This document shows, piece after piece, positions 3,663-20,164 of a stretch of 64,000 nt of DNA. Position 1 is the first letter of the stretch, and the number at the start of each line of letters is the position of its first letter. The DNA is from Gammaproteobacteria bacterium. Its GTDB lineage: Bacteria; Pseudomonadota; Gammaproteobacteria; UBA5335; SLRW01. The stretch is from contig DASQZJ010000064.1 of NCBI GenBank assembly GCA_035638775.1, positions 62,453 to 126,452 on the forward strand. The letters are read 5' to 3'. A program made the position numbers and the translations under genes. Under the pieces are notes generated by a model. It had not been told where the DNA came from. It did no database searches and saw only the letters and a list, made by a program, of their open reading frames with translations.

Positions 3663-4651
3663 GTCGCTCCCCTCCACTGCGGCCCGGAAATCAGCCAGAC
3701 GAAATCCCCCACCGTGGCGGCCGTGGTCGGCAGACGCTTCAGCGCCATCCAGTCCGTGTCGGGGCCGTTGAAGCCCTCGATGGTCGAGCACGCCACCCGA
3801 AAGCCGTTCTCCTGCAGCAGGGAGCGGCAGCGTGCGTCGAAATCGGCCGCGGTGCCGTTGGGATAGGCGAACCAGCGTGGCGCGTAGCCGAGCTCTTCCC
3901 GGATGCGGTCACGGCAGGTGCGGATCTCCCAGGTCAGCCGCGGGAACTCGACCCGCGACATGATGGGATGGGTGTGCGTGTGACCGGCGAACAGGCAGAG
4001 GTCGCCGATGGCGCGCGCCTCGTCCCAGCTCAGCATCTGCCGGGGCAACTCCTCCAGGGTGTCCTGCACGCCGAGATTGCGCGCGAGCTGTGCCACGTCG
4101 TGCTGGCGCCGGGTGTCCGGGCTCGCCTTGAGGCGGGCCTTGGCCCGCGCCGCCTCGAGACTCCGCTGGCCGGGCGTGGCCAGCGCCACCGGCGTATCCG
4201 GGCTCCATGGCAGGCGCGCCTCGCGGTGCGAGGTTTCCCGGAAGGCCAGGTCGACGAAGTCCGTCCAGAGCGGCCGGCCACTGTCGATCGCGCCCGTCGC
4301 CAGGAACACGACTGCGGGTATCCCGTACTCGCGCAGCACCGGATACACGAGGTCGTGCACGCAGCGGTAGCCATCGTCGAACGTCAACAGGACGGGCGGG
4401 CGGGCGGAACGTCCGCTCTGGACGGCGCGCGGCAGGTCGTCCGGACCGATCATCCGGCAGTGCCGTGCCAGCCACTCGAGCTGCCGGCGGAACAGTGCGA
4501 GATCGAGGCCGCCGAGCAGACTCGGTCCCGACGCCACGCGGTGGTACATCAGCACCAGCGCTCCGGGCGGGCGCACCGCCCGCGCCGGTCCGTTCCATAC
4601 CGGTGACGCCGCCCAGGCAGCCTTGATTCCCCGCTTCGCCGCGCGCATCAC
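3659..4651 (-). CDS. Polysaccharide deacetylase (NodB homology domain), second copy
   Basis: ORF 3659..4651; LVLMYHRV, VLLTFDDGYRCV, AGHTHTHP; ATGA overlap with upstream GT2 stop at 4648-4651. Confidence 0.85.
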   Translation of the reverse strand: MMRAAKRGIKAAWAASPVWNGPARAVRPPGALVLMYHRVASGPSLLGGLDLALFRRQLEWLARHCRMIGPDDLPRAVQSGRSARPPVLLTFDDGYRCVHDLVYPVLREYGIPAVVFLATGAIDSGRPLWTDFVDLAFRETSHREARLPWSPDTPVALATPGQRSLEAARAKARLKASPDTRRQHDVAQLARNLGVQDTLEELPRQMLSWDEARAIGDLCLFAGHTHTHPIMSRVEFPRLTWEIRTCRDRIREELGYAPRWFAYPNGTAADFDARCRSLLQENGFRVACSTIEGFNGPDTDWMALKRLPTTAATVGDFVWLISGPQWRGAT

Positions 4652-5730: not shown

Positions 5731-7230
5731 TCAGTGGCTGCCGCTGCCCACCGGCCGGCGCCGCAGGGCAGCGAGCACCTGCCACAGCATCTGCCGCGTT
5801 TCGCCGTCGGCCAGCGTGACGAGCGCCCCGTACCAGAGGACCCCGGTGACGACCCGGAGCAGGATCGTCGCCACCAGCGACCCCGTGTGTATCGCCGTTA
5901 CGACCGGATACATGCTGAGCGCGATCAGGCCGAACTTGGCGGTACTGCCGAGCGGCAGCCCGAGCCGGATCACGCGGCGCGCCGCCAGCCCGGTCGCGGC
6001 GGTCAGGCCCAGGTAGCTGACCAGCGTGGCGATCGCTGCGCCCTGGATTCCCAGGCGCGGCACCAGCACCAGATTGAGGAGGATGTTGAAGACGGCGGCC
6101 CCTGCCACCAGGAGCATCATCGTGGCGCCGCGCTTGCGGATGTACAGGCCGGCCCCGAACATCACCACGCTCCCGTCCAGCACCATCCCCGCGATCGCCC
6201 ACGGGATCACCACGCCGCCCAGCGCATATTTGCTGGAGGCGAGCAGAGTCAGGAGCTCGGGCCCCACCGCCGTCAGCCCCACGATCACCGGCAGCGCGGC
6301 CATGAGGTAGAAGTGCAGGCTGCGCTGCAGGAACTCGCGGGTGGCCGTCTCGCCCTCGTCGGACCAGAGCCGCAGGTAGGTGGGCAGGATGGCGCTCACC
6401 AGGGAGGCCACGACCACGCCATTGGCGTACTCGCACATGTTGTAGGCCGCCGCGTAGGACCCCAGCGCGGCGGATCCCAGTGCCCACTGGATCACGTACC
6501 GGTCCCCGATGCTGAGGATCTGCCCGGCCAGCTCGTAGCCGATCAGGGGCACCCCGAAGCTGAGCATCCGGATCATGAGCTGGCGCGAAAAATCCGTCGG
6601 TGACCAGTGGACTTTCGTCAGCAGCAGCCAGCCCAGCACGCTGACCGCGGCGAGCTCCCCCACCAGCGTGGCGCTGAAGAATCCCTCCACGCTGCGCGAG
6701 ACCAGGATCAGGGTCGCCAGGATCACTGCCAGGGTGCCGTAGCGGCGCAGCACCTGATACAGGCTGTAGAGGCCGCTGCGCTCCTGCGCCCGCAGCATGT
6801 TCATGAACGCGCTGTCCAGCACCCGTACCAGGACGAGCAGCGCGACTACCAGCGGCAGCAGGCGGCGACCCGGAACGGGCCACCAGTGGAAGGGCGCCAG
6901 GGCGTTGGCGAGAAACCAGAGCAGCGCGACCAGCACCCCGCCGATCGTCATGCCGATGACGACCGTGGCGTAATACGAGGACAGGGTAAACGGCCCGTCG
7001 CCGGCGCGGATCTCCGAGTAGAAGCGCAGCACCGAGTTCTGGATGCCGGCCTTGCCGCACGCCACGAGGATCATGAGCGTCGCCGAGACCAGGCTGAGCA
7101 GGCCGTAGTCGCTGACCGAGAACAGGCGGGTCAGGATGGGGAACGAGATGAACCCGGCCAGCGTGACCACCAGGTTGCCGGCGGAATAGCGCGAGACATG
7201 GGCCGCCAGGCGGTCAAGCGTCGCTGCCAT
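5731..7230 (-). CDS. Wzx-type oligosaccharide flippase (MOP superfamily)
   Basis: ORF 5731..7230, 499 aa, about 12-14 hydrophobic helices, typical polysaccharide-biosynthesis-protein N-terminus NLVVTLAGFISFPILTRLFSVSDYGLL. Confidence 0.85.
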   Translation of the reverse strand: MAATLDRLAAHVSRYSAGNLVVTLAGFISFPILTRLFSVSDYGLLSLVSATLMILVACGKAGIQNSVLRFYSEIRAGDGPFTLSSYYATVVIGMTIGGVLVALLWFLANALAPFHWWPVPGRRLLPLVVALLVLVRVLDSAFMNMLRAQERSGLYSLYQVLRRYGTLAVILATLILVSRSVEGFFSATLVGELAAVSVLGWLLLTKVHWSPTDFSRQLMIRMLSFGVPLIGYELAGQILSIGDRYVIQWALGSAALGSYAAAYNMCEYANGVVVASLVSAILPTYLRLWSDEGETATREFLQRSLHFYLMAALPVIVGLTAVGPELLTLLASSKYALGGVVIPWAIAGMVLDGSVVMFGAGLYIRKRGATMMLLVAGAAVFNILLNLVLVPRLGIQGAAIATLVSYLGLTAATGLAARRVIRLGLPLGSTAKFGLIALSMYPVVTAIHTGSLVATILLRVVTGVLWYGALVTLADGETRQMLWQVLAALRRRPVGSGSH

Positions 7231-8377
7231 CGTCGCCCCCCGCTTCCAGCCCCGCCAGGACCGGTTCGGCCGGAACCCGGTGCGGCAGGCTCCGCTTGAG
7301 AGCCGGCAACCGGTGGCGGCGCAGCTCGTATGCCCATCCCGGGGCGGTGCGGGCGATCACGTCCAGGTAGAGCGTCTCCCCGCTTGCGTTGCACAGCGCC
7401 TTCTTGTAGTCGTACTTGCCCTTGAGCATGTCGAAGACGACCGCTCCCTCGGCGATCGACTGCTCGATGGCGTAACCGAACAGCGCGACCCCCGGGGCCC
7501 ACGTGCTCGACGACGGCTCGAATCCGCCCTGGAAGCAGGACACGCGGTCCCGCCAGCGGAAACAGTAGAGCATCGCGATGACCTCCCCATCGAGCTCCAG
7601 GCAGTACAGCCGGAGCCGATTCTGCCCCATCAGCCGCGAGGCCAGCTCGAGATGGAAGCCCGTGTAGCTGTCGCTGGAGAAGCCGTAACGTTCCGCGCGG
7701 TCCGCGAAGCGCCGCCGGTGCAGCCTGCCAAGGTGGCTCATGGCCCCGTCCAGGGTGAGCGCATCCTGCCACTGGTAGAAGCGCGCCCCGGCACGCTCCA
7801 GCCGCCGCCGGCGACGCCGAACCTGCTTGCGCCAGTTCATGCTGAGCCCGGCCAGATACGTCTCGTAGTCGCCGGGCAGGCGGATGGCGAAGGTGTTCGC
7901 GCTGGTCCCTTTCCGCACCGTGAAACCCTGCTCGCCCGCCAGCTCCGCGACGAGCGCGCCGAACGGGTGCTCCGCCGGCATGTCGGTGAGCGACAGCAGG
8001 TCCCAGGGGGCGGGCCGGCGCGTCAGATACCCCGCCAACGCCCGCTGCGCGGACTCGGCGGCGCCCGGAGCACACACGGGCGCCAGGTAGTCCGGCGAGG
8101 TATCGCCGCCGGTCCCGACGTATCGCAGCCGCCGCAGGGGCAGCACACGCAGGGCGCGGGCGCGCTCCAGGTAGAGAGGCAGTATGGCCACCGCGCGGCC
8201 CTGTTCGCGGGCCACCAGCACCTGAAGGCGCCGCCCCGTCCCGTAGTGCCTCCACCAGCTGGCGTGCCAATCCCAGCTGGTGAACACGTTCGCCAGCGGG
8301 TCCTCCCCGCTCAGGCGGTCCCAGTCGGACCGCAGCGCGTGCAGCCCGGCCGCGTCCGTGACGACTTCCATGTCCAT
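7214..8377 (-). CDS. CelD/FemAB-related GNAT-fold acyltransferase (Acetyltransf_6-like)
   Basis: ORF 7214..8467; LRSDWDRLSGEDPLANVFTSWDWHASWWRHYG N-terminus typical of CelD/BioF2-like family; start ATG 8377 (MDMEVV) with GAGG 9-10 nt upstream. Confidence 0.75.
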   Translation of the reverse strand: MDMEVVTDAAGLHALRSDWDRLSGEDPLANVFTSWDWHASWWRHYGTGRRLQVLVAREQGRAVAILPLYLERARALRVLPLRRLRYVGTGGDTSPDYLAPVCAPGAAESAQRALAGYLTRRPAPWDLLSLTDMPAEHPFGALVAELAGEQGFTVRKGTSANTFAIRLPGDYETYLAGLSMNWRKQVRRRRRRLERAGARFYQWQDALTLDGAMSHLGRLHRRRFADRAERYGFSSDSYTGFHLELASRLMGQNRLRLYCLELDGEVIAMLYCFRWRDRVSCFQGGFEPSSSTWAPGVALFGYAIEQSIAEGAVVFDMLKGKYDYKKALCNASGETLYLDVIARTAPGWAYELRRHRLPALKRSLPHRVPAEPVLAGLEAGGDDGSDA

Positions 8378-8463
8378 CCAGTGCGACCTCCGCGTCGGCC
8401 TCCGTGGCCGGCGCCAGTAAACCCTGCCTGTCCGTCGATCCGGTGCGCCCCGGCAACCGGCGC

Positions 8464-9687
8464 TCAACGCCGGCGTCTGCTGCCGTAAAGCCGGGTCAGC
8501 GCGCCGAGCACGACCGGGACCTGATACGTCGATTCGATGATCTCGCGCGAGCGCGCCCCCATCTGCCGCCGCAGCCGCTTCGCCGCCAACAACCGCCCGA
8601 CCGCCGCCGCGAGGTCAGCGGGTCGCTCGGACGCCACCAGCAGACCGTTCCATCCGTCCCGGACCAGCTCGACGCTGCCGCTGACCCGGGTGGCGACGAC
8701 CGGCAGGCCTGAGCACATCGCCTCCAGCACTGCATTTGGCAGCCCTTCCTGACGCGAGGGCTGGACATAGACATCCGCGCCGGCCATCAGCTCCGGGACG
8801 TCGTCACGCCCACCCAGGAACCGTACGCTGCCGTCCACGCCGAGCACCCGGGCCAGTCTCTCGAGGCTGTCCCGGTCCGGCCCGTCGCCGGCAAGCTGCA
8901 GCTCTGTCCCGGCCGGCAGCCCGCCCTGGTCGTCCAGCTCGCGCCACGCGCGCAGCAGCACGTCGACGCCCTTCACGCGGTCGAGGCGGCCCGCGTAGAG
9001 GACCCGCAGCGGGCCCCCATCGCCGGGCCCCCGGCGAGCGTTGCTGAAGCGCTCCAGGTCCACGGCATTGGGAATCATCGCCAGTCGATCCTCGGCATAC
9101 CCGGCCGCGAGGAGGCGCTCCCGAGTATAGTCGCTGATCGTCTGGATGGCGTCGTAGCGCCGCATGGCCGCATTCATCAGTCGGTGCAGCCACCGCGTCC
9201 GCAGCGCCGGGTCCAGCAGCCCCCCCTCGAACTCCCAGGCCCCGGAGACCTTTGCCACCAGCGTGGCGCCGAGCCAGGGTCGCAGCACGCCGGCGACCGC
9301 CGCCAGGTTGCTGACGGTATGCACGTGGATCGCATCGAAGTCGTGGCGCCGGCGCAGCAGGCAGGCCGCGAACCGCAGGCCCAGGATGGCCGCGCCGATG
9401 CCGCGGATTCGCGGATACGGAATGCGGTGCAGCGGGACACCGTGCAGGTCGGTCTCCAGGGCCTGCCGCGGCAGCAGCCTGGGGGCCATGATCTCCACGC
9501 GCACGCCGCGGCTCGCAAGCTCCCGGCTGAGCAGCGCCGCCTGCATCTCGGTGCCCCCGAGGCTGGGGAAGTACCCGTCGACGACGGTCAATACGCGCAG
9601 CGTACGTGTCCGGCCGCCGGCGTCGCGCGCTGCCGCGGCGGTGGCCGCCGCCACCGGACCGCCTGTTCCCATGACCGGATCATGCAT
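8464..9687 (-). CDS. Glycosyltransferase family 4 (group 1)
   Basis: ORF 8464..9747; LRVLTVVDGYFPSLGGTE, C-terminal EGLPNAVLEAMCSGLPVVATRVSG; start ATG 9687 with GAGGTG upstream, overlaps upstream stop by 8 nt. Confidence 0.85.
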   Translation of the reverse strand: MHDPVMGTGGPVAAATAAAARDAGGRTRTLRVLTVVDGYFPSLGGTEMQAALLSRELASRGVRVEIMAPRLLPRQALETDLHGVPLHRIPYPRIRGIGAAILGLRFAACLLRRRHDFDAIHVHTVSNLAAVAGVLRPWLGATLVAKVSGAWEFEGGLLDPALRTRWLHRLMNAAMRRYDAIQTISDYTRERLLAAGYAEDRLAMIPNAVDLERFSNARRGPGDGGPLRVLYAGRLDRVKGVDVLLRAWRELDDQGGLPAGTELQLAGDGPDRDSLERLARVLGVDGSVRFLGGRDDVPELMAGADVYVQPSRQEGLPNAVLEAMCSGLPVVATRVSGSVELVRDGWNGLLVASERPADLAAAVGRLLAAKRLRRQMGARSREIIESTYQVPVVLGALTRLYGSRRRR

Positions 9688-10621
9688 GTGCGGGCACCTC
9701 ACGCTCGGCGAACCGCGCGAACCACTCGCGGATCTGCTCCAACGCACTGGCCTGCCACTCCGGGAGATGCAGCTCGTGGTTGGCGTCGGGGATCACGCGA
9801 ATCCGATAGCTCCCGCCGTCGCGGCGTCCGTCCAGCTCCGGCCCGAGAACCAGGTCCTGGAATTCGAACCAGCGGTTGTCGTTGCCGCCGAACAGCATCA
9901 GGTGCGGGATGCCGGCGCGTTCCAGGTAGCCGAAGCTGTCCAGGAAGAGCTGGCTCGCACGAGCCTCCCGGGCGGGGAGTGCCTCGATCCTCGACAGCGG
10001 TGCGGAAACCAGGCCGGAGAGCGTTGCGCCGATCGCCGAGAAATCGCTCTCGCCCCGCAGCAGGCGGCTCCAGGCGGCCCGCGAGCGAAGCTTGGCCAGG
10101 TAGTCGTGCATGTTCCGCCGCAGGCGCGTCGGCGTGGGGCCGGACGGCGCCGCCGAGACGCCCACGGAGGTGTTGACGGACAGCACGCCGGCGACGAGAT
10201 CCGGCCGCTCCGCTGCCGCCAGCTGTGCCGTTACGGCACCTCCGCAGATGCCCCCGAGTACCACGCGGCGCACGCGAAAACGGCGCCGGAGCTGCGCCGC
10301 ACCGGCGAGGGCATCGCGCACGAAACGTCCTCCCTCGACGCTGTCGCGCAGCTCCTGCACCGGCGCGGCAGGCAGGTCGCCGTCGCTCTCGCCCACGCCC
10401 ACCGTATCCATGCGCAACGTCGTGACCCCGTCCGCCGCCAGCTTCCGGGCCAGGTGCACGTAGAAGCGGTGGGGGCCGGTCCGGTACTTCAGCCCGGCAG
10501 GCAGCAGCAGCATGCAGATGCCGTTGCCCCTCTCCGTCACGCCTCCGGGCATCGTGAGTATGCCACGCAGGGTGAGGTCGTCCGGTCCGCGCAGCTCGAG
10601 TGGCTCTTCCCTGCAGCGCAT
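9680..10621 (-). CDS. Alpha/beta-fold protein, exosortase-A-system hydrolase-1-like; Cys in nucleophile elbow
   Basis: C-terminal 313 codons of ORF 9680..11263 (rest is out-of-gene extension); start ATG 10621 (MRCREEPLEL); elbow VVLGGICGGAV (TGC at 10244-10246), later GGNDNRW and DANHELH. Confidence 0.8.
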   Translation of the reverse strand: MRCREEPLELRGPDDLTLRGILTMPGGVTERGNGICMLLLPAGLKYRTGPHRFYVHLARKLAADGVTTLRMDTVGVGESDGDLPAAPVQELRDSVEGGRFVRDALAGAAQLRRRFRVRRVVLGGICGGAVTAQLAAAERPDLVAGVLSVNTSVGVSAAPSGPTPTRLRRNMHDYLAKLRSRAAWSRLLRGESDFSAIGATLSGLVSAPLSRIEALPAREARASQLFLDSFGYLERAGIPHLMLFGGNDNRWFEFQDLVLGPELDGRRDGGSYRIRVIPDANHELHLPEWQASALEQIREWFARFAEREVPAHA

Positions 10622-10635
10622 GTCCGCCTCGCTTC

Positions 10636-11475
10636 TCACTGAATGTCGCAGAACATTTCCAGGCTGGCCTCGATCAGCCCGGGTTGTGCCGCATCGTGGA
10701 ATCGCGGCTCGTGCCAGAACTGCGGCACGGCAAGCGCACGGAATGCGACGTTCGGCAGCTGTTCCAGCTGCCGCCAGACTCCTCCCGCCTCGCTCGCGCG
10801 CGCGAAACCGATTACATCCACCCGGCACCCCGCGACCTGCGCCGCCTCGACAAGATCGAACCCGCGCACGGAAGCCGCGAGGGCGGGCCCCACCTGGTAG
10901 CCCAGGATATTCACCGGCTGGCCGGCTTCGAGCTGCGCCAGCAGGTGGCCGCGGTCCTGCACGATCCGCCGGTGCGTGGCCAGCTGGGTCGTGAGGTTGT
11001 AGCGCAGGCACTCCAGGAAATACGCCCCCCCCTTCACCACCGGGTGCCAGGTGTGCACCGACCGGGCCCCGACCCGGGCGGCCGCGCTCACGGCGATGGC
11101 CCCCCCGAGGCGCAGACCGAACAACCGCAACATGCGGATGCCAAGGCGATTCCGGGCGATCTCGGCCATGTCCTCGACGTCGTCGATCCAGGCGGCCAGG
11201 TCGAGGCCGTCGAGTTCGCCCTCGCTGTCGCCGTCCCCCTCGTAATCGAAACGCAGCACCCACTCGCCCCTCGCGGCCAGCGTCCGGGCGAAGTGCCGAT
11301 AGACCGGCTGCGTGAACACTTTCTCCTCCAGGAACGGGTTGCAGAAGATCCAGCCTTCGCGCATCCCCGCCTTCCCGGTCATGACGTGAAACAGCCTCCG
11401 GCCCCGACGGTTCTCCAGGAAGCCGCTGCTCTCGGGAATACGGTCCCGCGTGCGGGAAGCGATCGCGCTAGCCAT
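10636..11475 (-). CDS. Alpha/beta-fold protein, exosortase-A-system hydrolase-2-like; Arg at nucleophile-elbow position
   Basis: ORF 10636..11487; NPFLEEKV, RFDYEGDGDSEG, elbow LFGLRLGGAIA (CGC at 11110-11112); start either 11475 (ATG) or 11487. Confidence 0.75.
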   Translation of the reverse strand: MASAIASRTRDRIPESSGFLENRRGRRLFHVMTGKAGMREGWIFCNPFLEEKVFTQPVYRHFARTLAARGEWVLRFDYEGDGDSEGELDGLDLAAWIDDVEDMAEIARNRLGIRMLRLFGLRLGGAIAVSAAARVGARSVHTWHPVVKGGAYFLECLRYNLTTQLATHRRIVQDRGHLLAQLEAGQPVNILGYQVGPALAASVRGFDLVEAAQVAGCRVDVIGFARASEAGGVWRQLEQLPNVAFRALAVPQFWHEPRFHDAAQPGLIEASLEMFCDIQ

Positions 11476-12475
11476 GGCCGGGGGCAACCTCCGGCACGGG
11501 GGCCAGGAGAAGCGGTGAGGCGTGGTGGTAGGCGGTCGCGCTCCGCTTGGCTTCGATGTCGCGGTACACCAATCGCGCCCGGTCCTCCGGGATCCCCAGC
11601 CAGCGTGCCGCCCGCTGTGCCGGCAGACCGTGATTGAACGCCCACAGGGCCAGGTCCATCTGCTCGTACGGCAGGGCGAAATAGAACTCGTCCTGTCCCT
11701 GCGGGAGACTGTAGGTGTCCGTGGTGGGACGCGCCCGGCAGATGTCCTCCGGCAGCTCGAGATGGCGCGCCAGGGCGTAGACCTGCGTCTTGTAAAGGTG
11801 GGCGATCGGTTTCAGGTCCGCGGCCCCGTCGCCGTTCTTGACGAAGAACCCCTGGTCGTACTCCAGCCGGTTGGGCGTTCCCACGACCGCGTAGTTCAGG
11901 CGATCCGCGTGGAAGTACTCGATGTTCTTGCGGATGCGCTGCTTGTAATTGGTGGCGGCGACCACCTGCAGGTACTGGCGCAGGTTCAGGCGGCGCGAGC
12001 TCTGTGTTCCCGCGGGATCGGAGACGACCAGGACGAAGTGGTTGTACCGGCCGTCGAGCCCGCCGGCGATCACGATCTTGCTGCGCCAGCCGTCGCCGTA
12101 TTCCGGGAATACCTGGCGGATCGCCTCGTCGCGCCAGCGGTAGCAGCCGACTGCCTCGAGCACGGGGGCGATATCCTGCTCCACGTGCTCGAGGCCCAGG
12201 TGCTCGACCAGCAGCCGTCCGCGGCGGGTGCTGTCGGGGTCGGAATCGCGCTCGGGCAGCAGCAGGGCCAGCACCCGGCCCGCTCCGAGGGCACGCACGG
12301 CCAGGGCGGCGCAGACCGAGCTGTCAATGCCGCCGGAAACCGCCACGACCAGCCCGCGCCGGTGCAGATAACGCCCCAGCACCTCCCGGATACCCGAGGC
12401 GATGCGTTCCGTCTCCCGGGCCGGATCCAGTCCGAGTGCCTGCTCCGGCGTCAGTGCATCCAGTCGTGCCGCCAT
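11468..12475 (-). CDS. NAD synthetase (NadE)-family PP-loop ATP pyrophosphatase, operon-embedded
   Basis: C-terminal 335 codons of ORF 11468..13594; start ATG 12475 (MAARLDAL) overlapping upstream TAA (TAATG); PP-loop VAVSGGIDSSV; GTPNRLEYDQGFFVKNGDGAADLKPIAHLYKTQVYALARHL resembles the NadE NKSE..GY.T..GD...D..P core. Confidence 0.75.
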   Translation of the reverse strand: MAARLDALTPEQALGLDPARETERIASGIREVLGRYLHRRGLVVAVSGGIDSSVCAALAVRALGAGRVLALLLPERDSDPDSTRRGRLLVEHLGLEHVEQDIAPVLEAVGCYRWRDEAIRQVFPEYGDGWRSKIVIAGGLDGRYNHFVLVVSDPAGTQSSRRLNLRQYLQVVAATNYKQRIRKNIEYFHADRLNYAVVGTPNRLEYDQGFFVKNGDGAADLKPIAHLYKTQVYALARHLELPEDICRARPTTDTYSLPQGQDEFYFALPYEQMDLALWAFNHGLPAQRAARWLGIPEDRARLVYRDIEAKRSATAYHHASPLLLAPVPEVAPGHG

Positions 12476-14028
12476 TACAGTGCCCTTCCCTGCTGTGATT
12501 TCACTGCCGGGCCGGCCTGCTCGATACCACGAGCCAGCACGTGCCGGCGCAATTTCCCGGACGCGGTCCGGGGCAGAGCCGCGGCCACCCGGACGTACCG
12601 GGGCACCTTGTGCCGTGCCAGGTGCTCCAGGCAGTGGCGCTGGACCTCCCGCGGCTCGACGGCCGCCCCGGGGCGCGGCACGATCACCGCGCCGACCACC
12701 TGACCGAGCACCTTGTCCGCAATCCCGATGACCGCTGCCTCCGCGACGTACGGCAGCCGCGCGAGCACCTCCTCGACCTCCTCGGGGCTGACCCGCTGCG
12801 CCCCGACCTTGATCAGCTGGCTGCGGCGGCCCCGCAGATACAGGAATCCTTCCGCGTCCATCCAGCCGAGGTCTCCCGTGCGCAGCCAGCCGTCCCTGAG
12901 CACGTCCGCACTGGCTTCCGGGTCCCGCCAGTAGCCGCGCATGATCCCGGGCCCGCGGGCCCAGATCTCGCCCACGCGCCCGGCGGGCAGCCGCCCGCCC
13001 GCCCGATCGCGGACTTCCAGGACCGTGTCCGCGACGGGCACGCCCGCCGATCCGGGCTTGTCGGCAAACCGATGCGGCGGCAGGTAGCTCAGTCGCGCGG
13101 TCGCCTCGGTCTGGCCGTACATGACGAAGAAGCGCAGCCATGGCAGACGGCGACTCACCGCGCGGACCAGTTCCGGCGCCATTGGTCCTCCCGCCTGGGT
13201 GGCGTAGCGCAGGCAGCGCAGGTCGTGGGAGGTGTCGCGAAGGTGCGGCGCGAGCAGCGCGAAGGTCGAGGGTACGCCGGGGAGCCCCGTGACGCGCTCG
13301 CGCTGGATCCTTGCCAGCAGGCGCTCCGGGTATACGAGCGTCTCGCCCACCACCAGGCAGCCCCCGGCGGCAAGGTGGCTGTTCAGCACCGAGGCGCCAT
13401 AGGCGTAGTGGAACGGCAGCGTCGCCAGCGCCCGCTCGCCCGGGCCCAGGTCCAGGTAGGCGGCGATCGCCCGGGCGTTGCTTGCCAGGTTGGCGTGGCT
13501 GAGCATGACCCCCTTGGGTCGGCCGGTCGTCCCCGAGGTGTAGGAGATCACTGCCAGTGCATCGGAACGGGGCAAGCGGCCGGTGTGGCCCCACCGCACC
13601 GGGATCGACTGGTCCCCGGGCGCTTGCGCGGCGGTCCAGGGCGTCGGCGTATCCGGTGCCCCAAGCGTGACCACCCGGACCCCGGCATCGATCCCGATCA
13701 CCGGTGACGCGGCGAACACCCAGGTCGCGCCTGCATGGCGCAGCCGGCCCCGCACCGACCCGGTGCGCGCGGAGGGATCCATGGGGACCGCAACGCCGCC
13801 GGCCATCCAGATCCCGTAAAGCACGGCCGCATACGCCGGACCGTTCGGCAACAGCATGGCTACCCGCGACCCGGGCGCCAGCCCGTTCGCGCGCAGGTGC
13901 TCCGCGACGCCGCGCACCTGCCGGGAAAGATCACCGTAGCTTACCCGGCCCGTGCCGCAGGCGAAGGCGGGTGCCTGCGGCTGGCGGAATGCCTGCTCGA
14001 GGAACCCGTGCAGCAGCGTGGGAGCCAT
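12475..14028 (-). CDS. AMP-forming acyl-CoA/acyl-carrier ligase (exosortase-A-associated acyl-CoA ligase-like)
   Basis: ORF 12475..14028, 517 aa; ISYTSGTTGRPKGVMLSHANL, TGDLGWMDAEGFLYLRGR, ALPRTASGKLRR adenylation motifs. Confidence 0.9.
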   Translation of the reverse strand: MAPTLLHGFLEQAFRQPQAPAFACGTGRVSYGDLSRQVRGVAEHLRANGLAPGSRVAMLLPNGPAYAAVLYGIWMAGGVAVPMDPSARTGSVRGRLRHAGATWVFAASPVIGIDAGVRVVTLGAPDTPTPWTAAQAPGDQSIPVRWGHTGRLPRSDALAVISYTSGTTGRPKGVMLSHANLASNARAIAAYLDLGPGERALATLPFHYAYGASVLNSHLAAGGCLVVGETLVYPERLLARIQRERVTGLPGVPSTFALLAPHLRDTSHDLRCLRYATQAGGPMAPELVRAVSRRLPWLRFFVMYGQTEATARLSYLPPHRFADKPGSAGVPVADTVLEVRDRAGGRLPAGRVGEIWARGPGIMRGYWRDPEASADVLRDGWLRTGDLGWMDAEGFLYLRGRRSQLIKVGAQRVSPEEVEEVLARLPYVAEAAVIGIADKVLGQVVGAVIVPRPGAAVEPREVQRHCLEHLARHKVPRYVRVAAALPRTASGKLRRHVLARGIEQAGPAVKSQQGRAL

Positions 14029-14032
14029 CGCG

Positions 14033-14290
14033 TCAGCTCTCCGCCGCCGCGCGCTTGCGTTCGACGAACGCCACCAGGCTGGCGATGGAGTCCAGGTTCT
14101 CGGGCACCATCTCCCGGTCCTCGACCACGATACCGAACTCGACTTCCAGGAAGGCGATGATCTCCATGATGCCCGTGGAATCGATGATGCCCTTGTCGAG
14201 GAACGAATCCGCGTCCGCCAGCGCGGAGGGATCGTCGGTGAACAGGTAGTTCTCCAGCACGTAACTTCGCAGCATGTCCTTCATGGTCAT
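14033..14290 (-). CDS. Acyl carrier protein (85 aa)
   Basis: C-terminal 85 codons of ORF 14033..14758; start ATG 14290 in ATGA overlap with upstream stop; phosphopantetheine-site context LDKGIIDSTGIMEIIAFLE. Confidence 0.8.
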   Translation of the reverse strand: MTMKDMLRSYVLENYLFTDDPSALADADSFLDKGIIDSTGIMEIIAFLEVEFGIVVEDREMVPENLDSIASLVAFVERKRAAAES

Positions 14291-16275
14291 CCCCCGTCTC
14301 CCGTCACCGCCTTCCCGATCCCCTGCACCGCCCGTGACGGCACCCGCCGGAAATGGTCCGCTCCGTCGCCGAAGAAGCGCCGGTGCCACATCTGCGTCGT
14401 CAGGACCACCGCGGCCGCCAGGCCGTCCGCGTGGCCCAGCGCGCGGCCGGATGCCATTTTGTCGAGCAGCCGCCCCACTGCGACCGGGTCGAAATAGCCG
14501 GCAGCACGTATGCTCTCCGCGCTCATCAGATCGTCGCGGAGATCGGCACCGCCGGCCCCGGCCAGCCCCGCCGGAGCGGGTGCCCGGTACGGCTGTTTCC
14601 GTCGTCGCAGCACGGCATCGGGAATTCGCCCGCGCATCACCCGCCGCAACAGGTACTTCTCCTCCAGCACATGCATCTTCACGCGCGGATCCAGGCGGTT
14701 GGCGAAATCGACCACGCGATGATCCAGGAACGGAAACCGCCCCTCCACGGAGTGCCACATGAGCATGCGGTCGCCCTGGGTCGACAACAGGTAGCCGGGC
14801 AGCAGGTGGGTCGCCTCGAGATAGGCCGCCCGCTGGAACGGGCCGTAGTCGAAGAACCGTGATGGCAGCTCCGCCGCCAGCGCGTCATGCGGGTCCTCGC
14901 GCATCCGCTCCCGCAGGTCGGCAGACCAGAACACCCGGCAGCGGGAGCCGCTCCGCCAGCGCGGCAGATGCGAGAAGAACGGCTGTTCCGGCCGTTCCAG
15001 TCCGAGCCCGAAGAACCGCTGCAGGTAGACGTCGCTCTGGCCGCCGGCCAGGTTCATCCAGGGATACAGCCGTCGCAGCAGCAGGGGACGCCAGCGGGAC
15101 CGGGGCTGCCGGGCCCAGAAAGCGCGGACCTTGGTTTCCTTGAGGATGTCGTAACCGCCGAGCACCTCGTCGGCTCCCTCGCCCGTGACCACCACGCGAT
15201 AGCCGTTCTCCCGCACCAGTCCGGAGAGCAACCCGAGCGGGACGGGCGCGGTGCGGAACAGCGGACTCTCCGCGTGCCAGACGGCCTGGTCTAGTGCGCC
15301 CAGAATCTCGTCGCCCCCGAGGGCCAGCCGACGGTGGTCCAGCCCGAGCGTGCGCACCAGGGCATCCTGGTGGTGACTCTCGTCCAGCGAGGAACCGGGG
15401 AATTCGACGGAAAAGGTGCTCAGCGGAGCACGCGTGGCGCGGCGGATGAGCCATACCAGCGTCGAAGAATCCAGCCCTCCCGAGAGGTAGGCAGCGACGG
15501 GCACGTCGGCCCTCAGGCGGATGCGGGTCGCGTCCGCCAGCAGCGCGTCGAGCTCTTCGGCGAGACTGTCGGGGCTGCCCGCCAGGTAATCGCCCTGGTC
15601 GGGATAGTCCCACTGCCAATAGCGACGGCGGCGCATCCCGTTCCGGTCCACGCTGATCATCTCGCCGGGGCGCAGTTGGTGCATGCCCCGGAACAGCGTC
15701 CGGCCCGGGACCGGGGCCCACAGGGTCATGAGCTGGTCCAACGCTTCGACATCGGGTTCGGGACGGGGAACCAGGGGCAACAGGGCCTTGATTTCGGAGG
15801 CGAAGAGCAGCCGGCCGCCGTGCCACGTGTAGTGCAGGGGCACGATCCCGACGCGGTCCCGGGCAAGCAGCAGGCGCTGGACGCGCTCGTCCCAGACGGC
15901 AAGGGCGAACTGGCCGTTGAGCTCCTCGAGGAAGCGTTCGCCGCGGGCCCGGTAGAGCTCCAGCACGACCTCGGTGTCCGACCGGGTGCGGAAGCGGCAG
16001 CCTTCGCGTTCAAGGGCCGCCCGGAGCTCGGGGTGGTTGAAGATCTCGCCGTTGAAGACCAGGTGAACCCGGCGGCCGGCATCACTCATGGGCTGGACGC
16101 CGCCCGCGGGGTCGATGATCGCAAGGCGCGTGTGCGCCAGCCCGGTGTTCCCGCTCAGCAGGATGCCGTTGTCATCGGGTCCGCGGTGCGCCAGCGCACC
16201 TTGCATGACATCGAGCTCGGCCGCCGTCGGCGGAAGCCGACCGTCCCGAGAGAAAATCCCGGCGATTCCGCACAT
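14287..16275 (-). CDS. Asparagine synthase-family glutamine amidotransferase (exosortase-A-associated amidotransferase-1-like)
   Basis: ORF 14287..16326; start ATG 16275 giving Ntn MCGIAGIF; synthetase-domain YLSGGLDSS. Confidence 0.9.
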   Translation of the reverse strand: MCGIAGIFSRDGRLPPTAAELDVMQGALAHRGPDDNGILLSGNTGLAHTRLAIIDPAGGVQPMSDAGRRVHLVFNGEIFNHPELRAALEREGCRFRTRSDTEVVLELYRARGERFLEELNGQFALAVWDERVQRLLLARDRVGIVPLHYTWHGGRLLFASEIKALLPLVPRPEPDVEALDQLMTLWAPVPGRTLFRGMHQLRPGEMISVDRNGMRRRRYWQWDYPDQGDYLAGSPDSLAEELDALLADATRIRLRADVPVAAYLSGGLDSSTLVWLIRRATRAPLSTFSVEFPGSSLDESHHQDALVRTLGLDHRRLALGGDEILGALDQAVWHAESPLFRTAPVPLGLLSGLVRENGYRVVVTGEGADEVLGGYDILKETKVRAFWARQPRSRWRPLLLRRLYPWMNLAGGQSDVYLQRFFGLGLERPEQPFFSHLPRWRSGSRCRVFWSADLRERMREDPHDALAAELPSRFFDYGPFQRAAYLEATHLLPGYLLSTQGDRMLMWHSVEGRFPFLDHRVVDFANRLDPRVKMHVLEEKYLLRRVMRGRIPDAVLRRRKQPYRAPAPAGLAGAGGADLRDDLMSAESIRAAGYFDPVAVGRLLDKMASGRALGHADGLAAAVVLTTQMWHRRFFGDGADHFRRVPSRAVQGIGKAVTGDGG

Positions 16276-16356: not shown

Positions 16357-17715
16357 TCATTGCTCCATGCGCATCGGCCCGATCCGGGTCGCGAACGGGT
16401 CGCTGTAGGGCCGGCGTTCAATCGGGCGCCAGACGATGCCCACCATTACCTGCGTCTCGTGGAAATCGGTCAGCCCATTGCTGCTGTCGCGGCGGTAGTG
16501 TGCAACCTCGAACCGCGTCGCGATGTTCCGGCTGAGATATCGCACCAGCGTCACCGAGGCCTGCATGTCGTCATCGCGCTGACCGATGTCCTCGTACCGC
16601 GTTTCGATGAAGCTGGCGGCCGTCTGCAGGGTCATGGCGCCGCCAAGCTTCCATCCCAGGGCAAGGTTCGCCGAGCGCTGCAGCTGATCGAGGGGCAGCC
16701 CCGGGTACTGCTGCTTTTCCGCGCGGATGCGAAAGTCCTGGAAGCCGGCGTCGGTCGAGCGCGTCAGGTAGAGCTCCGCGACCCGGTCCCGATAGATCTC
16801 GGCAACCGGCGCCTGGGCGACCTCCCCCGGGGTGGAGGGCGCGGCGCCGAGCAGCGCCAGCCCGGCGTCCGTCAGCTCCGAGCTGGCGTTCATGCCCGCC
16901 GTCAGCACCCGGGAAAGCCGCCGTGCGAGGTCGACGCGAATCATCGAGCCGTCCAGGCGCTGGCCGTTATCGCGTTTCAGGTAACTGCGCCCGAGCCGGA
17001 TGCCCACCCGAGACCGGGGCGGCTCGCGGGTCAGCCCGAAATAGTAATCCTCGCGCCGGTAGTCCTGGTCCGCGGCGACACTGCTGTTGTCATACCGTAC
17101 CCGGGTCGCTTCCGCGTTGAGCGACAGCCGCGTGAAAGGGCTCTCCTGCCGGTACAGCCGGGCGGCTCCCTGGTAACGCTTGTTGCCGATCTCGCTGTCC
17201 GAGTAGTACAGATCCCCGTAGCGTGCGGACAGCTCCAGCTGGTGGATCGGGTCGAGGGGCACGAAGGCGTCCGGCCCGGTCCACAGCGCGTTCTCGTTCT
17301 GGATGTTGCCGGGACTGGCGGGGTTCAGCTGGTCGATCCGGGCCTGCCGGGCGTGGTCCTCGAGGGTCCACGCCAGGCGCCCGGGGAGCAGGTTGCCCAC
17401 CACCCGGCCGTTCATGTCGTACAGCGTCTGGTCCCCGTAGGTCCCGTGCTGATAGTGCTCGTACTGCGCGGAACCGGTGACGTCGGCCATCAGCCAGCGC
17501 GACTGCTGGAGCCACTCCACGTCACTGGCCAGCACGTGCGTCAGCTCGCTCCTGGCGTCGTGCGGGGCGCGCGCGATGTTGTCGCTGTGCTGGGCGTCGT
17601 AGCCCAGGCTGAGCCGGAACTGCGCCATCGCCGGCTCCGAAGTCCACAATGCCGCCGCCGCCAGGAGCAGCACCATGAGGCGCCCCGCGCCCCGTCCCCG
17701 CGTCACCCTGGTCAT
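16357..17715 (-). CDS. Outer-membrane beta-barrel protein of PEP-CTERM-type EPS loci (function unknown)
   Basis: ORF 16357..17715; signal peptide LMVLLLAAAALWTSEPAMAQ; alternating beta-strand pattern throughout, Tyr/Arg-rich strands to the C-terminus. Confidence 0.7.
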   Translation of the reverse strand: MTRVTRGRGAGRLMVLLLAAAALWTSEPAMAQFRLSLGYDAQHSDNIARAPHDARSELTHVLASDVEWLQQSRWLMADVTGSAQYEHYQHGTYGDQTLYDMNGRVVGNLLPGRLAWTLEDHARQARIDQLNPASPGNIQNENALWTGPDAFVPLDPIHQLELSARYGDLYYSDSEIGNKRYQGAARLYRQESPFTRLSLNAEATRVRYDNSSVAADQDYRREDYYFGLTREPPRSRVGIRLGRSYLKRDNGQRLDGSMIRVDLARRLSRVLTAGMNASSELTDAGLALLGAAPSTPGEVAQAPVAEIYRDRVAELYLTRSTDAGFQDFRIRAEKQQYPGLPLDQLQRSANLALGWKLGGAMTLQTAASFIETRYEDIGQRDDDMQASVTLVRYLSRNIATRFEVAHYRRDSSNGLTDFHETQVMVGIVWRPIERRPYSDPFATRIGPMRMEQ

Positions 17716-17724
17716 GACCGGAGC

Positions 17725-18591
17725 CTAGGCCGCGAAGCGCCGGAGCACGGGCGGCAGCCACGGCCTCCGGTTGAGAACCACGCCCAGCAGCTTCCGCTCC
17801 CCCACCGCTGTCGCCGCCGCCGCGAGTTGGCGCGCCGTCACCCGCCCGTACGGCACCACAAGCATGACCCAGTCACACAGCTCCGCAAGCACCGAGGTAT
17901 CGGCGGAGGATTGCACCGGCGGCGCGTCCAGCACCAGCGAGCGCTCCGGATAGCGCCGCGCGATCCCCGACATCAGCTGCCGCATGCGCACGGAGCTGAA
18001 GAACTCGCCTTCCAGGTCACGGCGCGTCCCGGCAGGTATCAGTCTCACCCGGGGCAGCCCGGTGGGCTGGATAATCTCGTCTTCCACGATGTCCCTGCTC
18101 GAGAGGTAGTCGCTCAGCCCGGTTTCCGTGAGCGGCAGCTCCGGCATCGCGAAGGCGGTGGCCTTGGGCGCACGGATATTGCAGTCGAGCACCAGCGCCG
18201 TGCGCGCCTCGTCCAGGGCGATCGCGGCCGCCAGGTTGCAGGCCACGAAGCTGGAGCCGCCTCCGGGGATCACGGAGGTCACCATGACCACGGTGTTGGC
18301 ACCGCCGGTTCGCTGCATCAGGCGCATGCGCAGCTCGCGGAAAGCGTTGCCCACCGGCGTGTTGGCGGTCCCGGAGGACAACAGCCGCCGCGCGGCCAGC
18401 TCCTTCGCGGTAAACACGAAGGGCTCCTCCATGCGCGCGATCGCGTGTCGCGAAGCCTGGCGCTCGGCCAGGTCGAAATGCCTCTGTTCGGCGGACGCGA
18501 GCGCCCCCTCCCTGTCACCGGCCCCCAGCGCCGCCATGGGCCAGCCGGAATCGGTCCGGCCGCCCAGTTGTTCCTTGTCCGCAATGCTCAT
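17725..18591 (-). CDS. BY-kinase (CpsD/Wzc C-terminal domain)-like P-loop protein with degenerate Walker A
   Basis: ORF 17725..18591; VVMVTSVIPGGGSSFVACNLA (18250-18276, Lys replaced by Ser), Walker A-prime ALVLDCNIRAP, Walker B LVLDAPP; no C-terminal Tyr cluster. Confidence 0.75.
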   Translation of the reverse strand: MSIADKEQLGGRTDSGWPMAALGAGDREGALASAEQRHFDLAERQASRHAIARMEEPFVFTAKELAARRLLSSGTANTPVGNAFRELRMRLMQRTGGANTVVMVTSVIPGGGSSFVACNLAAAIALDEARTALVLDCNIRAPKATAFAMPELPLTETGLSDYLSSRDIVEDEIIQPTGLPRVRLIPAGTRRDLEGEFFSSVRMRQLMSGIARRYPERSLVLDAPPVQSSADTSVLAELCDWVMLVVPYGRVTARQLAAAATAVGERKLLGVVLNRRPWLPPVLRRFAA

Positions 18592-18592
18592 G

Positions 18593-20164
18593 TCAGAGGA
18601 TTCCCTTCATCTTCAGCAGGCCGATGGCGACGAAAGCGCCCATCGAGAGAAACAGCAGCACGGCAACCCAGCGGCTGTCACCTCGCTCCCGGCGCACCTC
18701 GCCCTCGATCAGGAGATCCGGGACCACCGCCACGACCGGCAGCCCGAGAGCGCGCTGCACCGCTTCTTCCGAGCGTATCCGCGGGTCCACCTCCTGCAGC
18801 GCCAGCAGCAGCCCGAACGGCACCGCCAACCCCAGCAGGATGCCCCCCGCGGCGAAATGGATGAACCGCAGACCGCTGGGTTTGAGCGGCAGGAAGGCCG
18901 GCTCGTACACGCGCAGCGACATGCCCTGCTGGTCTCGGTCCAGGTTCATCGAGATGCGCGCGTTCTCGCGCCGCTTGAGCAGGTCCTGGTAGATGTCACG
19001 GTTGACGTGGTAATCGCGCGTGAGCTCGGCCATGACTGCCTCGCTGGAGCTTACGCGCTTGCCGCGGTTGACCTCGTCCGAAAGCATCTTGCGCGTCTCG
19101 TCGCGGCGCGCGCGCAGCGTCGCGATGCTGGTGCGGGTATCCGAAAGCTCCCGCCGCAGCCGCTCGTACAGCGGGCTCATCTGGATATTCTTGTCGACGT
19201 AGGTCTTGCCGCTGGCCTCCGCGGCCTTCTGCGCCAGCTCGCGCCGTTTCTGTTCCTGTCGCACCGCTTCCTTCAGATCGGCGATCTGGTACCTGAGCTG
19301 CACGATGTCGGGATAGCTGTCCTTGTAGGACAGCCTCAGCGTGGCCAGCTTGCCCTGCAGCTGGGCAATCAGCTCCTGGTACTGGCCCTCGCGGGAAATG
19401 CTGGCGGTGACCGCCGCCTCGCCGGAGAGCTGGTTCTTGAGCGAGCCTTCCTTGATGTGAGCCTCCTTGAGCTCCAGCTCGGTCTTCTGGATCTTGTCCT
19501 GCAGGGTGGTGATGCGGTCGCCGATGGTGCCCTCCGTCCCCGGTCTGGCATCGAGATGCGTGTCGCGGAAGTCGCGCATCCGGTTCTCCGCGCCGACCAG
19601 CTTCTTGTGGTACTCGTCCACCTGGTTGTCGATGAACTCGTACGCGGTATCGCTCTCCTGCGACTTGAGCTTGAGACTGGCCTCGATGAACAGCTGCGCG
19701 AACTCCGACACGGTCTGCCTGGCGCGACCGGGGCGATCGTCCTGGTACTGGATCTTGACCAGATTGTCCCCGATCTGGAACACGCGGGTGTGACGCTTGA
19801 TCCTTTCGGCGATGCGCTGTTGCTGCACGGGCGTGGGATGGGACGCCAGCAGGCCGGTGGCCTGCATGATCCGGTGCAGCGCGGAACGGCTGTAGAGCAG
19901 CTCGCGTGCGACCCGTGACTGGTCGACGGCGCCCGTGGGGACCGCCTGCCCCTGGAGCAGCGGCTTGATGATGTTGTGATTGTCCACGAGGATCGTGACC
20001 GAGGACGTGTAAACCTTCGGCCAGAACACCCCGACCACGCTCATGGAAAGGCTGATCACCACGAACAGCACGGCGAGCAGGCGCCGGTGCTGGTACGCCT
20101 CGGTCAACAGCGATCGCAGACGCTGTTCGAGAGAATTGGCGACAGTCGAGCCGGACATGGTCAT
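18593..20164 (-). CDS. Wzz/PCP-type chain-length determinant with long coiled-coil periplasmic domain
   Basis: ORF 18593..20164; N-terminal TM LAVLFVVISLSMSVVGVFW, coiled-coil-rich middle, C-terminal TM pair. Confidence 0.85.
   Translation of the reverse strand: MTMSGSTVANSLEQRLRSLLTEAYQHRRLLAVLFVVISLSMSVVGVFWPKVYTSSVTILVDNHNIIKPLLQGQAVPTGAVDQSRVARELLYSRSALHRIMQATGLLASHPTPVQQQRIAERIKRHTRVFQIGDNLVKIQYQDDRPGRARQTVSEFAQLFIEASLKLKSQESDTAYEFIDNQVDEYHKKLVGAENRMRDFRDTHLDARPGTEGTIGDRITTLQDKIQKTELELKEAHIKEGSLKNQLSGEAAVTASISREGQYQELIAQLQGKLATLRLSYKDSYPDIVQLRYQIADLKEAVRQEQKRRELAQKAAEASGKTYVDKNIQMSPLYERLRRELSDTRTSIATLRARRDETRKMLSDEVNRGKRVSSSEAVMAELTRDYHVNRDIYQDLLKRRENARISMNLDRDQQGMSLRVYEPAFLPLKPSGLRFIHFAAGGILLGLAVPFGLLLALQEVDPRIRSEEAVQRALGLPVVAVVPDLLIEGEVRRERGDSRWVAVLLFLSMGAFVAIGLLKMKGIL

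Follow-up and report, generated by a model that had tools for sequence, protein, structure and literature searches.

The best-described counterpart of the genes reported here is an operon on pSymB of S. meliloti. There, the ligase gene smb20650 and the acyl carrier protein (ACP) gene smb20651 are reported to be cotranscribed; SMb20651 is converted to its holo form by AcpS and becomes acylated in E. coli when SMb20650 is co-expressed, while SMb20650 is unable to replace FadD (PMC7232532, citing Ramos-Vega 2009). The function of this operon was still called open in 2017 (PMC5686131). Enzymes of the same superfamilies also compose the accessory set of exosortase A (XrtA) loci (NCBIfam families TIGR03108, TIGR03098, TIGR03099, TIGR03100 and TIGR03101). 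Here, both systems were compared with six genes from an exopolysaccharide (EPS) operon of a gammaproteobacterium (contig DASQZJ010000064.1). The whole stretch of 64,000 nucleotides that was analysed, with a G+C content of ~69%, is called the window below. The six genes, all read on the minus strand, are the following (nt, nucleotides; aa, amino acids):

16275 (ATG) to 14289-14287 (TGA), minus strand: AsnB-like amidotransferase, 662 aa, N-terminus MCGIAG
14290 (ATG) to 14035-14033 (TGA), minus strand: ACP, 85 aa, motif IIDSTG
14028 (ATG) to 12477-12475 (TAA), minus strand: ligase, 517 aa, motif YTSGTTGRPKGV
12475 (ATG) to 11470-11468 (TAG), minus strand: NadE-like enzyme, 335 aa, motif SGGIDSS
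11475 (ATG) to 10638-10636 (TGA), minus strand: hydA, 279 aa
10621 (ATG) to 9682-9680 (TGA), minus strand: hydB, 313 aa

The first four genes are the same cassette as the pSymB operon that carries smb20651 (ACP) and smb20650 (ligase). Genes for AsnB, ACP, the adenylate-forming enzyme and NadE occurred in the same order, the ACP serine motif was shared, and identities over near full length reached 49% for AsnB, 47.5% for ACP, 34% for the ligase and 59% for NadE. The S. meliloti operon was reportedly named asnB-smb20651-smb20650-nadE1 in work by Ramos-Vega in 2009. The two loci differed in their surroundings: the pSymB quartet is located between sugar-transport genes and minCDE, with neither an EPS operon nor a hydrolase pair, whereas the window genes would form two units placed end to end, namely the cassette (16275-11468) and a pair of the XrtA hydrolase 2/hydrolase 1 (hydr2/hydr1) type (11475-9680). 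The window unites a cassette that was already known with a divergent hydr2/hydr1 pair, both within one EPS operon.

All six genes, together with the junctions and motifs quoted in the initial annotation, were recovered where it had placed them, and its product assignments held at superfamily level through Pfam and NCBIfam matches (Asn_synthase and GATase_7, PP-binding, AMP-binding, NAD_synthase and two Hydrolase_4/alpha-beta-fold proteins). The sequence GGGAAGGAA precedes the AsnB-like gene on its 5' side. Of the five junctions in the set, for the whole of which translational coupling had been proposed, three display a stop/start overlap: ATGA between the AsnB-like and ACP genes (14290-14287), TAATG between the ligase and NadE-like genes (12477-12473) and the ATGGCTAG overlap between the NadE-like gene and hydA (11475-11468). 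At the other two, ACP and ligase are separated by a 4-nt gap without overlap, and hydA and hydB by a 14-nt gap containing GAGG. The module edge formerly set at 9680 had to be given up: coupling continues into the next gene, which encodes a glycosyltransferase (GT) of family GT4 and begins within an overlap with the stop of hydB (ATGCATGA, 9687-9680). Accordingly, these six genes make up an inner stretch of a long operon (~23303 to ~300) and are not a unit delimited by transcription signals. Since start/stop overlaps are ordinary in operons, the junctions carry no statistical weight, and it is conserved synteny that makes the module real.

This synteny was observed in a one-genome-per-species scan, in which 600 of a larger number of pattern-matched stretches were checked, and 348 of these 600 encode a relative. 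The window proteins were then compared by tblastn with the best 80 loci (numbered with the prefix L). Loci were considered informative when the NadE-like gene was flanked by 5 kb or more on either side, which applied to 47 species-level genome loci. The order AsnB-ACP-ligase-NadE was displayed by 35 of the 80 loci and AsnB-ligase-ACP-NadE by another 17, while most of the remaining ones displayed ACP-ligase-NadE with AsnB elsewhere or cut off. Four adjacent cassette genes on one strand, as in the window, were encountered in 52 of the 80. Within 5 kb of the NadE-like gene, the informative loci contained a ligase gene in 46 cases, an ACP gene in 45, an AsnB gene in 44, and all three in 44 (94%). 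Gamma- and Betaproteobacteria, Myxococcota, Gemmatimonadota, Desulfobacterota and Bacteroidota were all represented. The NadE-like protein had more than 8000 relatives at ~70% identity, and metagenome contigs encoding it always combined the 85-aa ACP, the ligase and NadE, with AsnB nearby. The window AsnB-like protein was 45-51% identical to the cassette AsnB of other genomes; it retained the N-terminal Cys (MCGIAG) and the PP-loop SGGLDSS, and matched TIGR01536 with 465 bits against a cut-off of 267. The core of the finding is this four-gene cassette, to which the hydrolase pair is a rare addition.

The cassette was located within polysaccharide operons in 40 of the 80 genome loci, as well as on an Azospirillum plasmid and in the window. 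All records of S. meliloti, S. medicae and S. fredii that were examined had it on pSymB, and it was also encountered on replicons of Ensifer, Mesorhizobium ciceri, Shinella and Azospirillum. In Azospirillum thermophilum, genes in the order GT2-GT4-GT4-deacetylase precede the cassette, which is followed by a GNAT gene whose start overlaps the nadE stop; in M. ciceri, the cassette is followed by a divergent gene for a 371-aa protein and by a HemK/PrmC methyltransferase gene. The gene or genes after NadE varied with lineage, being either the hydr2/hydr1 pair, a GNAT gene, a FemAB-like gene, or a hexapeptide transferase gene together with one for a 283-aa protein. In many loci, this slot holds some acyltransferase-type gene. 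The Azospirillum 368-aa GNAT coupled translationally to the nadE end (L097:10002-11108) and the rhizobial 371-373-aa protein encoded beside the methyltransferase, which gave a sub-threshold GNAT hint (L094:10012-11127; L095:25264-26385), are possible cassette acyltransferases. No confident Pfam or NCBIfam family was obtained for the 283-aa protein, a 352-aa cluster or the rhizobial 371-aa protein, with only a sub-threshold GNAT hint.

The carrier protein reached the PF00550 gathering score (21.3 bits versus 20.8) and had its best NCBIfam match, a weak one, with ACP_for_OlsHI (55 versus 130). Its serine motif DSTG, containing the phosphopantetheine serine within IIDSTG, was invariant in 35 orthologues, and the protein was 47-49% identical to the ACPs of rhizobial pSymB and plasmids. 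In the ligase, the ANL motifs from A3 (YTSGTTGRPKGV) to A10 (SGK) were intact and conserved. Its A4 region, LPFHYAYGAS, lacks the aspartate that amino-acid adenylation domains carry in FDxS, and the ligase was 33-34% identical to the S. meliloti and M. ciceri cassette ligases. The best matches of a PDB sequence search mixed fatty-acyl, feruloyl, malonyl and oxalyl CoA ligases, so that specificity cannot be read from them. The ANL ligase is probably the loader of the 85-aa carrier. The thiotemplate-like core suggested in the initial annotation, in which a ligase loads a dedicated carrier, is supported by the invariant DSTG, the intact A3-A10 motifs and the loading reported for the S. meliloti orthologues (PMC7232532). 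The ligase plus ACP co-expression suggested in that annotation as a check has largely been carried out on these orthologues and favours loading. The accompanying statement that no protein of this kind has a demonstrated substrate needs qualification, given that the ACP/ligase pair of this cassette has been partly characterised in S. meliloti. In the literature on exosortase hydrolase, ligase and decarboxylase, on NadE in polysaccharide loci and on pSymB genes, no study of cassette function was found beyond SMb20651/SMb20650. Two S. meliloti isolates deviated from the conserved pattern. In strain R14, the ACP active-site serine is replaced by Pro (IIDPTG, L095:12001-12267), and the ligase annotation of strain AK57 is fragmented (L093:7409-8959); these changes may reflect cassette decay in some isolates, or sequencing error.

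The pair hydA/hydB belongs to a much smaller ensemble. Only 33 matches to hydB were found at 39% identity or above. The nearest cultured relative, from Sulfurifustis variabilis, occupied a locus almost the same as in the window, in which genes for a chain-length determinant, a kinase, an outer-membrane protein and an ATPase lead to AsnB, ligase, ACP, NadE, hydA, hydB, GT4 and beyond. A second genome displayed the identical order AsnB-ACP-ligase-NadE-hydA-hydB-GT4 and a third one the hydA-hydB pair alone. Among the 80 loci, three (L053, L021 and L045) had the pair, either fused or as separate genes, adjoining the cassette while no canonical ligase-decarboxylase set was detected in the vicinity; to these the window, L001 and L002 are added. 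In hydB, the triad Cys126-Asp248-His282 was invariant in 23 sequences, with Cys126 placed in GG[IL]CGG. Its AF2 model (pLDDT 86.5) adopted an ordinary alpha/beta-hydrolase fold, and a fold search with this model returned generic esterases and lipases only, with no substrate clue. In hydA, Arg122 (GLRLGG) stands at the nucleophile position and was invariant, the canonical TIGR03101 member included; hhalign related hydA to hydB with 98.4% probability and aligned Arg122 with Cys126. Cys126 also aligned with the Cys of the canonical TIGR03100 protein of L040, and a Cys was present as well in fused proteins. The hydB gene lies directly downstream of the hydr2-type gene hydA and encodes a Cys at the nucleophile elbow, a combination typical of hydr1 by a criterion that was derived in this analysis and is not a curated one. 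Fusions of an N-terminal hydr2-like with a C-terminal hydr1-like part were found twice (L021:13736-15520, 594 aa; L045:10216-12117, 633 aa), which argues that the two XrtA-type 'hydrolases' work as a complex. Because the Cys and Arg features also hold in the canonical TIGR03100 and TIGR03101 proteins of L040, we predict from these alignments that 'hydrolase 1' is a Cys-Asp-His enzyme and 'hydrolase 2' its nucleophile-less partner; hydB is probably an acyl-thioester transferase and hydA probably its non-catalytic partner.

Relationships with the XrtA accessory set were more distant than had been assumed. The window shared with it the superfamilies and the hydr2-then-hydr1 order encountered in L040. 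In both, the nucleophile position is occupied by Cys in hydr1 and by Arg in hydr2, and the window locus also has XrtA-type export genes. Yet, the proteins that had been described as marker families of exosortase A loci all scored far under the curated cut-offs: the AsnB-like protein against TIGR03108 (361.1 versus 816.9 bits; 454 bits for a cassette AsnB from another genome), the ligase against TIGR03098 (309.9 versus 592.35), hydA against TIGR03101 (97.2 versus 202.75) and hydB against TIGR03100 (77.8 versus 168.45). True TIGR03098 members in L010, L040 and L053 reached 640-796 bits, and the canonical hydrolases of L040 reached 231.7 (TIGR03101) and 328.5 (TIGR03100). Filing the four proteins under the XrtA-specific NCBIfam families was ruled out by these cut-offs; the assignments that did pass, TIGR01536 for the AsnB-like protein and NF002048 for the NadE-like enzyme, are generic ones. 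The EPS core of an XrtA locus was present, whereas exosortase, EpsI and PEP-CTERM cargo were absent within the window: exosortase, EpsI and PrsK/R were lacking among its called genes, the EPS locus running off the left window end, and no PEP-CTERM tail was seen in the window proteins.

The TIGR03099 decarboxylase, in whose place the NadE-like enzyme was formerly thought to sit, was likewise missing, a true TIGR03099 protein giving no tblastn match in the 64-kb window. This notion of a replacement was ruled out since both gene sets occur together. L010 contains the cassette, a TIGR03098 ligase (796 bits) and a TIGR03099 decarboxylase (640 bits) in one locus; in L040, the cassette is followed by canonical TIGR03101 (232), TIGR03100 (328) and TIGR03098 (787) proteins and a decarboxylase homologue (54% identical); a decarboxylase homologue also adjoins the cassette in L025 and L082. 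The quartet, which is conserved in its own right, and the canonical ligase-decarboxylase set are two separate cassettes able to sit side by side. In L010 (12728-16996), the canonical ligase and decarboxylase genes are preceded by a gene for a family-less 286-aa protein and followed by one for an Asp/Glu racemase; the former protein is ~40% identical to the 283-aa companion of the NadE-type cassette (L008:8983-9834).

The NadE-like enzyme fell into the NAD(+) synthase subfamily NF002048 (PRK00876; 490.9 versus 313 bits, model positions 9-326). It kept the NadE catalytic motifs and had no glutaminase domain. Its best PDB match reached only 101 bits and left query residues ~109-172 unaligned, corresponding to a conserved ~60-aa insert relative to solved NadE structures. 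Mean column identity of the family alignment was 72% across phyla. A methyltransferase gene of the PrmC/HemK type (NPPY) was located inside or beside the cassette in 18 of the 80 loci and in M. ciceri, mostly between the ligase and NadE-like genes (L022, L034, L035, L044, L046, L050, L054, L057, L060-L062, L072, L074, L088, L091 and others; also L094:11124-11849), including those of Thioalkalivibrio sulfidiphilus and Thiocapsa marina. The cassette PrmC-like protein scored 202 against the TIGR03534 cut-off of 199. PrmC/HemK enzymes methylate the amide nitrogen of glutamine, and the pathway product therefore probably bears a glutamine-like primary carboxamide. A PrmC-like gene, a phosphopantetheinyl transferase gene and a hexapeptide transferase gene were searched for in the rest of the window and were not found.

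The operon around the six genes and the divergent genes upstream of it displayed the following features:

16357..23303, minus strand: XrtA-type genes for EPS assembly and export, upstream of the cassette, which encode a priming GT, an exporter, a chain-length determinant, a tyrosine kinase and an outer-membrane protein
8464..9687, minus strand: GT4 glycosyltransferase, start overlapping the hydB stop
7214..8467, minus strand: FemAB-like GNAT (Acetyltransf_6), start codon uncertain
3659..4651, minus strand: polysaccharide deacetylase (PF01522)
1747..2667, minus strand: second polysaccharide deacetylase (PF01522)
23521..27312, plus strand: divergent genes for a TviB-like UDP-GlcNAc 6-dehydrogenase, an epimerase and an ATP-grasp enzyme

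The XrtA-type core passed its cut-offs for TIGR03013 (585.6 versus 393), TIGR03027 (194.6 versus 180) and TIGR03007 (371.9 versus 279), while the tyrosine kinase (TIGR03018) and the outer-membrane protein (TIGR03016) scored under theirs. Downstream of hydB, the operon encodes the GT4 enzyme, which was also found 3' of hydB in L001 and L002, the FemAB-like GNAT, a MOP flippase, two GT2 enzymes, the two PF01522 deacetylases and a Wzy/O-antigen-ligase-like protein. The deacetylase at 3659..4651 could expose an amino group for re-acylation. The divergent genes would supply amino-uronic acid carboxylates; the TviB-like dehydrogenase remained just under its cut-off (NF011729, 586.8 versus 592). A second FemAB-like GNAT gene belongs to this divergent set, which with it spans window 23521-28650. 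The locus encodes four ATP-dependent carboxylate-activating enzymes (AsnB-like, ligase, NadE-like and ATP-grasp), which suggests a heavily amide-decorated polymer. In L001 (3233-4303) and L002 (2993-4189), an AAA ATPase gene lies between the outer-membrane protein gene and AsnB. Tblastn found no such gene in the window, where a 79-nt spacer (16276-16356) takes its place.

We favour, tentatively and as slightly more likely to be wrong than right, a reading in which the six genes attach acyl and amide groups to EPS by loading an acyl group on the ACP, amidating two carboxylates and transferring the acyl group through a Cys enzyme to the repeat unit. The ligase would adenylate an aliphatic carboxylic acid other than an alpha-amino acid and, by analogy with the S. 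meliloti orthologues, load it as a thioester on the phosphopantetheine of the carrier. Each PP-loop enzyme would then turn one carboxylate of the intermediate or of the acceptor into a carboxamide, AsnB-like using glutamine-derived ammonia and NadE-like free ammonia; these amide steps are proposed because of the intact motifs and of the PrmC-like association. Finally, hydB would accept the carrier-borne acyl group on Cys126 and pass it to an amine or hydroxyl, with hydA binding substrate or carrier without catalysis. A precedent is OlsI, an enzyme of the pathway served by the ACP family that the window ACP matches best, if weakly. From the structure of the operon, the acceptor would most likely be the lipid-linked repeat unit of an amino-uronic-acid polysaccharide, whose amines may be freed by the two PF01522 deacetylases and whose carboxylates may be made by the TviB-like dehydrogenase.

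Several observations weigh against this proposal. In S. meliloti the quartet is free-standing, away from EPS genes, and a polymer therefore need not be the acceptor. The S. meliloti ACP reportedly yielded C12:0 and C18:0 acyl forms in E. coli (Ramos-Vega, 2009), which have no second carboxylate to amidate. The hydA/hydB genes are rare cassette companions and could be part of a different pathway. Moreover, conservation of the NadE-like enzyme (59-72% identity) greatly exceeded that of the ligase (33-50%), which a universal substrate such as nicotinic acid adenine dinucleotide (NaAD) or a nucleotide sugar fits better than a variable acyl group. Finally, a Planctomycetes metagenome-assembled genome encodes a 68%-identical NadE-like protein alone between nusA-infB and thiD/thiN (L073:9986-10972); this is the one informative locus in which ligase, ACP and AsnB genes are all lacking. 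A short dicarboxylate, amidated while bound to the carrier, was an early candidate for the acyl group and was downgraded to a possibility because the S. meliloti ACP was reported with fatty acyl groups and because the NadE-like enzyme is more conserved than the ligase.

A bolder proposal, to which we assign a fairly low likelihood, is that the NadE-like enzyme is no NAD synthetase but a dedicated amide synthetase whose substrate is a pathway carboxylate linked to the carrier, to CoA or to a nucleotide, that the amide is N-methylated by the PrmC-like enzyme in about one fifth of the genomes, and that together with AsnB-like and the Cys/Arg pair it would constitute an undescribed acyl/amide route to exopolysaccharides or lipids. 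Judged from gene neighbourhoods, genomic context argues for a role other than NaAD amidation, and the stand-alone L073 copy for NAD synthesis. The converse, a genuine ammonia-dependent NAD+ synthetase paralogue that is co-located or co-regulated and takes no part in the pathway chemistry, appears unlikely. It agrees with the NF002048 score (491 versus 313), with the retained catalytic motifs and very high cross-phylum conservation, and with the L073 copy alone among housekeeping genes. Yet, ligase, ACP and AsnB genes are its neighbours in 44 of the 47 informative loci, often with stop/start overlaps, a PrmC-like gene is inserted between ligase and NadE-like in many loci, and the best solved NadE reaches only 101 bits and does not cover the conserved insert. 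Furthermore, the cassette is carried by a dispensable replicon, pSymB being removable once engA and a tRNA-Arg gene have been moved (PMC4207669). In A. brasilense, two glutamine-dependent NadE enzymes have been characterised (PMC7196632), while a homologue of the NadE-like family is present on an A. brasilense plasmid record.

It is distinctly improbable, although several features are consistent with it, that the cassette builds a lipid (e.g. an aminolipid or N-acyl amino acid whose head group is amidated) serving as membrane lipid or anchor. The fatty acyl forms reportedly seen on the S. meliloti ACP, the weak resemblance of the window ACP to the ornithine-lipid ACP family, the free-standing quartet of S. 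meliloti and the possible methylation of a glutamine head group by a PrmC-like enzyme would all suit such a product, as would OlsI, an alpha/beta hydrolase acting as acyltransferase in ornithine-lipid synthesis (PMC12493201). However, the cassette resides in polysaccharide operons in half of the 80 loci, on the Azospirillum plasmid and in the window, no OlsB, OlsF or OlsH homologue was found in the window, and a heterologous acylation pattern may differ from the native substrate. Still less probable is the interpretation of the initial annotation, i.e. an exosortase-A marker module in which a NadE-like enzyme takes the place of the pyridoxal phosphate (PLP)-dependent decarboxylase and which decorates the polymer or PEP-CTERM cargo. 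The XrtA-type priming GT, exporter and chain-length determinant of the locus do pass their cut-offs, and hydA and hydB, which follow the order of the canonical pair, are remotely related to TIGR03101 and TIGR03100; against this stand the low scores of all four supposed markers, the quartets found beside TIGR03098 and TIGR03099 genes (L010, L040) or a decarboxylase homologue (L025, L082), the pSymB quartet devoid of EPS or exosortase context, and the lack of an exosortase or PEP-CTERM protein within the window. Action on a protein or peptide, through an amidated Asp/Glu or C-terminus and glutamine methylation, with secreted cargo of the EPS system as a conceivable target, is the most improbable reading of all. 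It would account for the PrmC/HemK association, these enzymes being protein glutamine methyltransferases, and AsnB relatives include peptide modifiers such as lasso-peptide cyclases, but no precursor peptide or cargo gene accompanies the cassette, no PEP-CTERM tail exists in the window, and the ACP and ligase are left unexplained.

Among further systems, those in which an amino sugar is de-N-acetylated and then N-acylated from a dedicated acyl-carrier protein, namely NodB/NodA/NodF of Nod factors and LpxC/LpxD of lipid A, resemble the EPS reading in their logic: the window likewise contains GT2 enzymes, two PF01522 deacetylases and a dedicated ACP. It differs from them by the absence of a NodA, NodE or LpxD homologue, by a carrier loaded by an ANL ligase and by two additional amide synthetases. 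With the Dlt (DltA/DltC) and OlsH/OlsI systems, it shares a stand-alone adenylating enzyme and a stand-alone carrier, and cassette ACPs matched the DltC and OlsHI-ACP models weakly; yet, the window ligase is devoid of the amino-acid-binding aspartate, no MBOAT or DltD is present in the window, and hydB uses Cys instead of Ser. AsnB homologues of the WbpS/WbtH type form uronamides in O-antigen loci. Like these, the window possesses a glutamine-dependent AsnB homologue in a polysaccharide locus with an amino-uronic-acid dehydrogenase, but its AsnB is locked to ACP, ligase and NadE-like genes that are absent from WbpS/WbtH systems. As for the XrtA accessory set, it constitutes, as seen above, a separate cassette.

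The remainder of the window encodes cytochrome c maturation (ccm) genes, a hybrid kinase with GGDEF/EAL domains, a TonB receptor, an Mrp antiporter, dnaQ, mltD, fabI and ppiD. The kinase, a protein of ~1500 aa (window 37306-41859, minus strand) combining hybrid histidine kinase, receiver and GGDEF-EAL domains, is encoded ~9 kb from the EPS locus, of which it is a possible cyclic di-GMP regulator. A hotdog-fold thioesterase (TIGR00369; window 36777-37271, minus strand) is located beside the ccm genes, outside the EPS locus, and was the only thioesterase-type gene seen in the window.

The cassette described here is present in several hundred sequenced species (a relative is encoded in 348 of the 600 stretches checked, out of a larger number of matches) and in thousands of metagenome proteins. 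Its members are annotated one by one, and misleadingly, as asparagine synthase, fatty-acid ACP, acyl-CoA ligase and NAD synthase. To this the window adds direct integration of the cassette into an EPS operon, together with its coupling to a hydr2/hydr1-type pair. If the proposal of an amide synthetase were true, thousands of 'NAD(+) synthase' annotations would be wrong. The leads that emerged, i.e. the NadE-like linkage, the embedded PrmC-like methyltransferase and the Cys/Arg hydrolase pair with its fusions, make the accessory enzymes of PEP-CTERM-type EPS loci experimentally approachable in S. meliloti, Mesorhizobium ciceri, Azospirillum and Pseudoxanthomonas mexicana.

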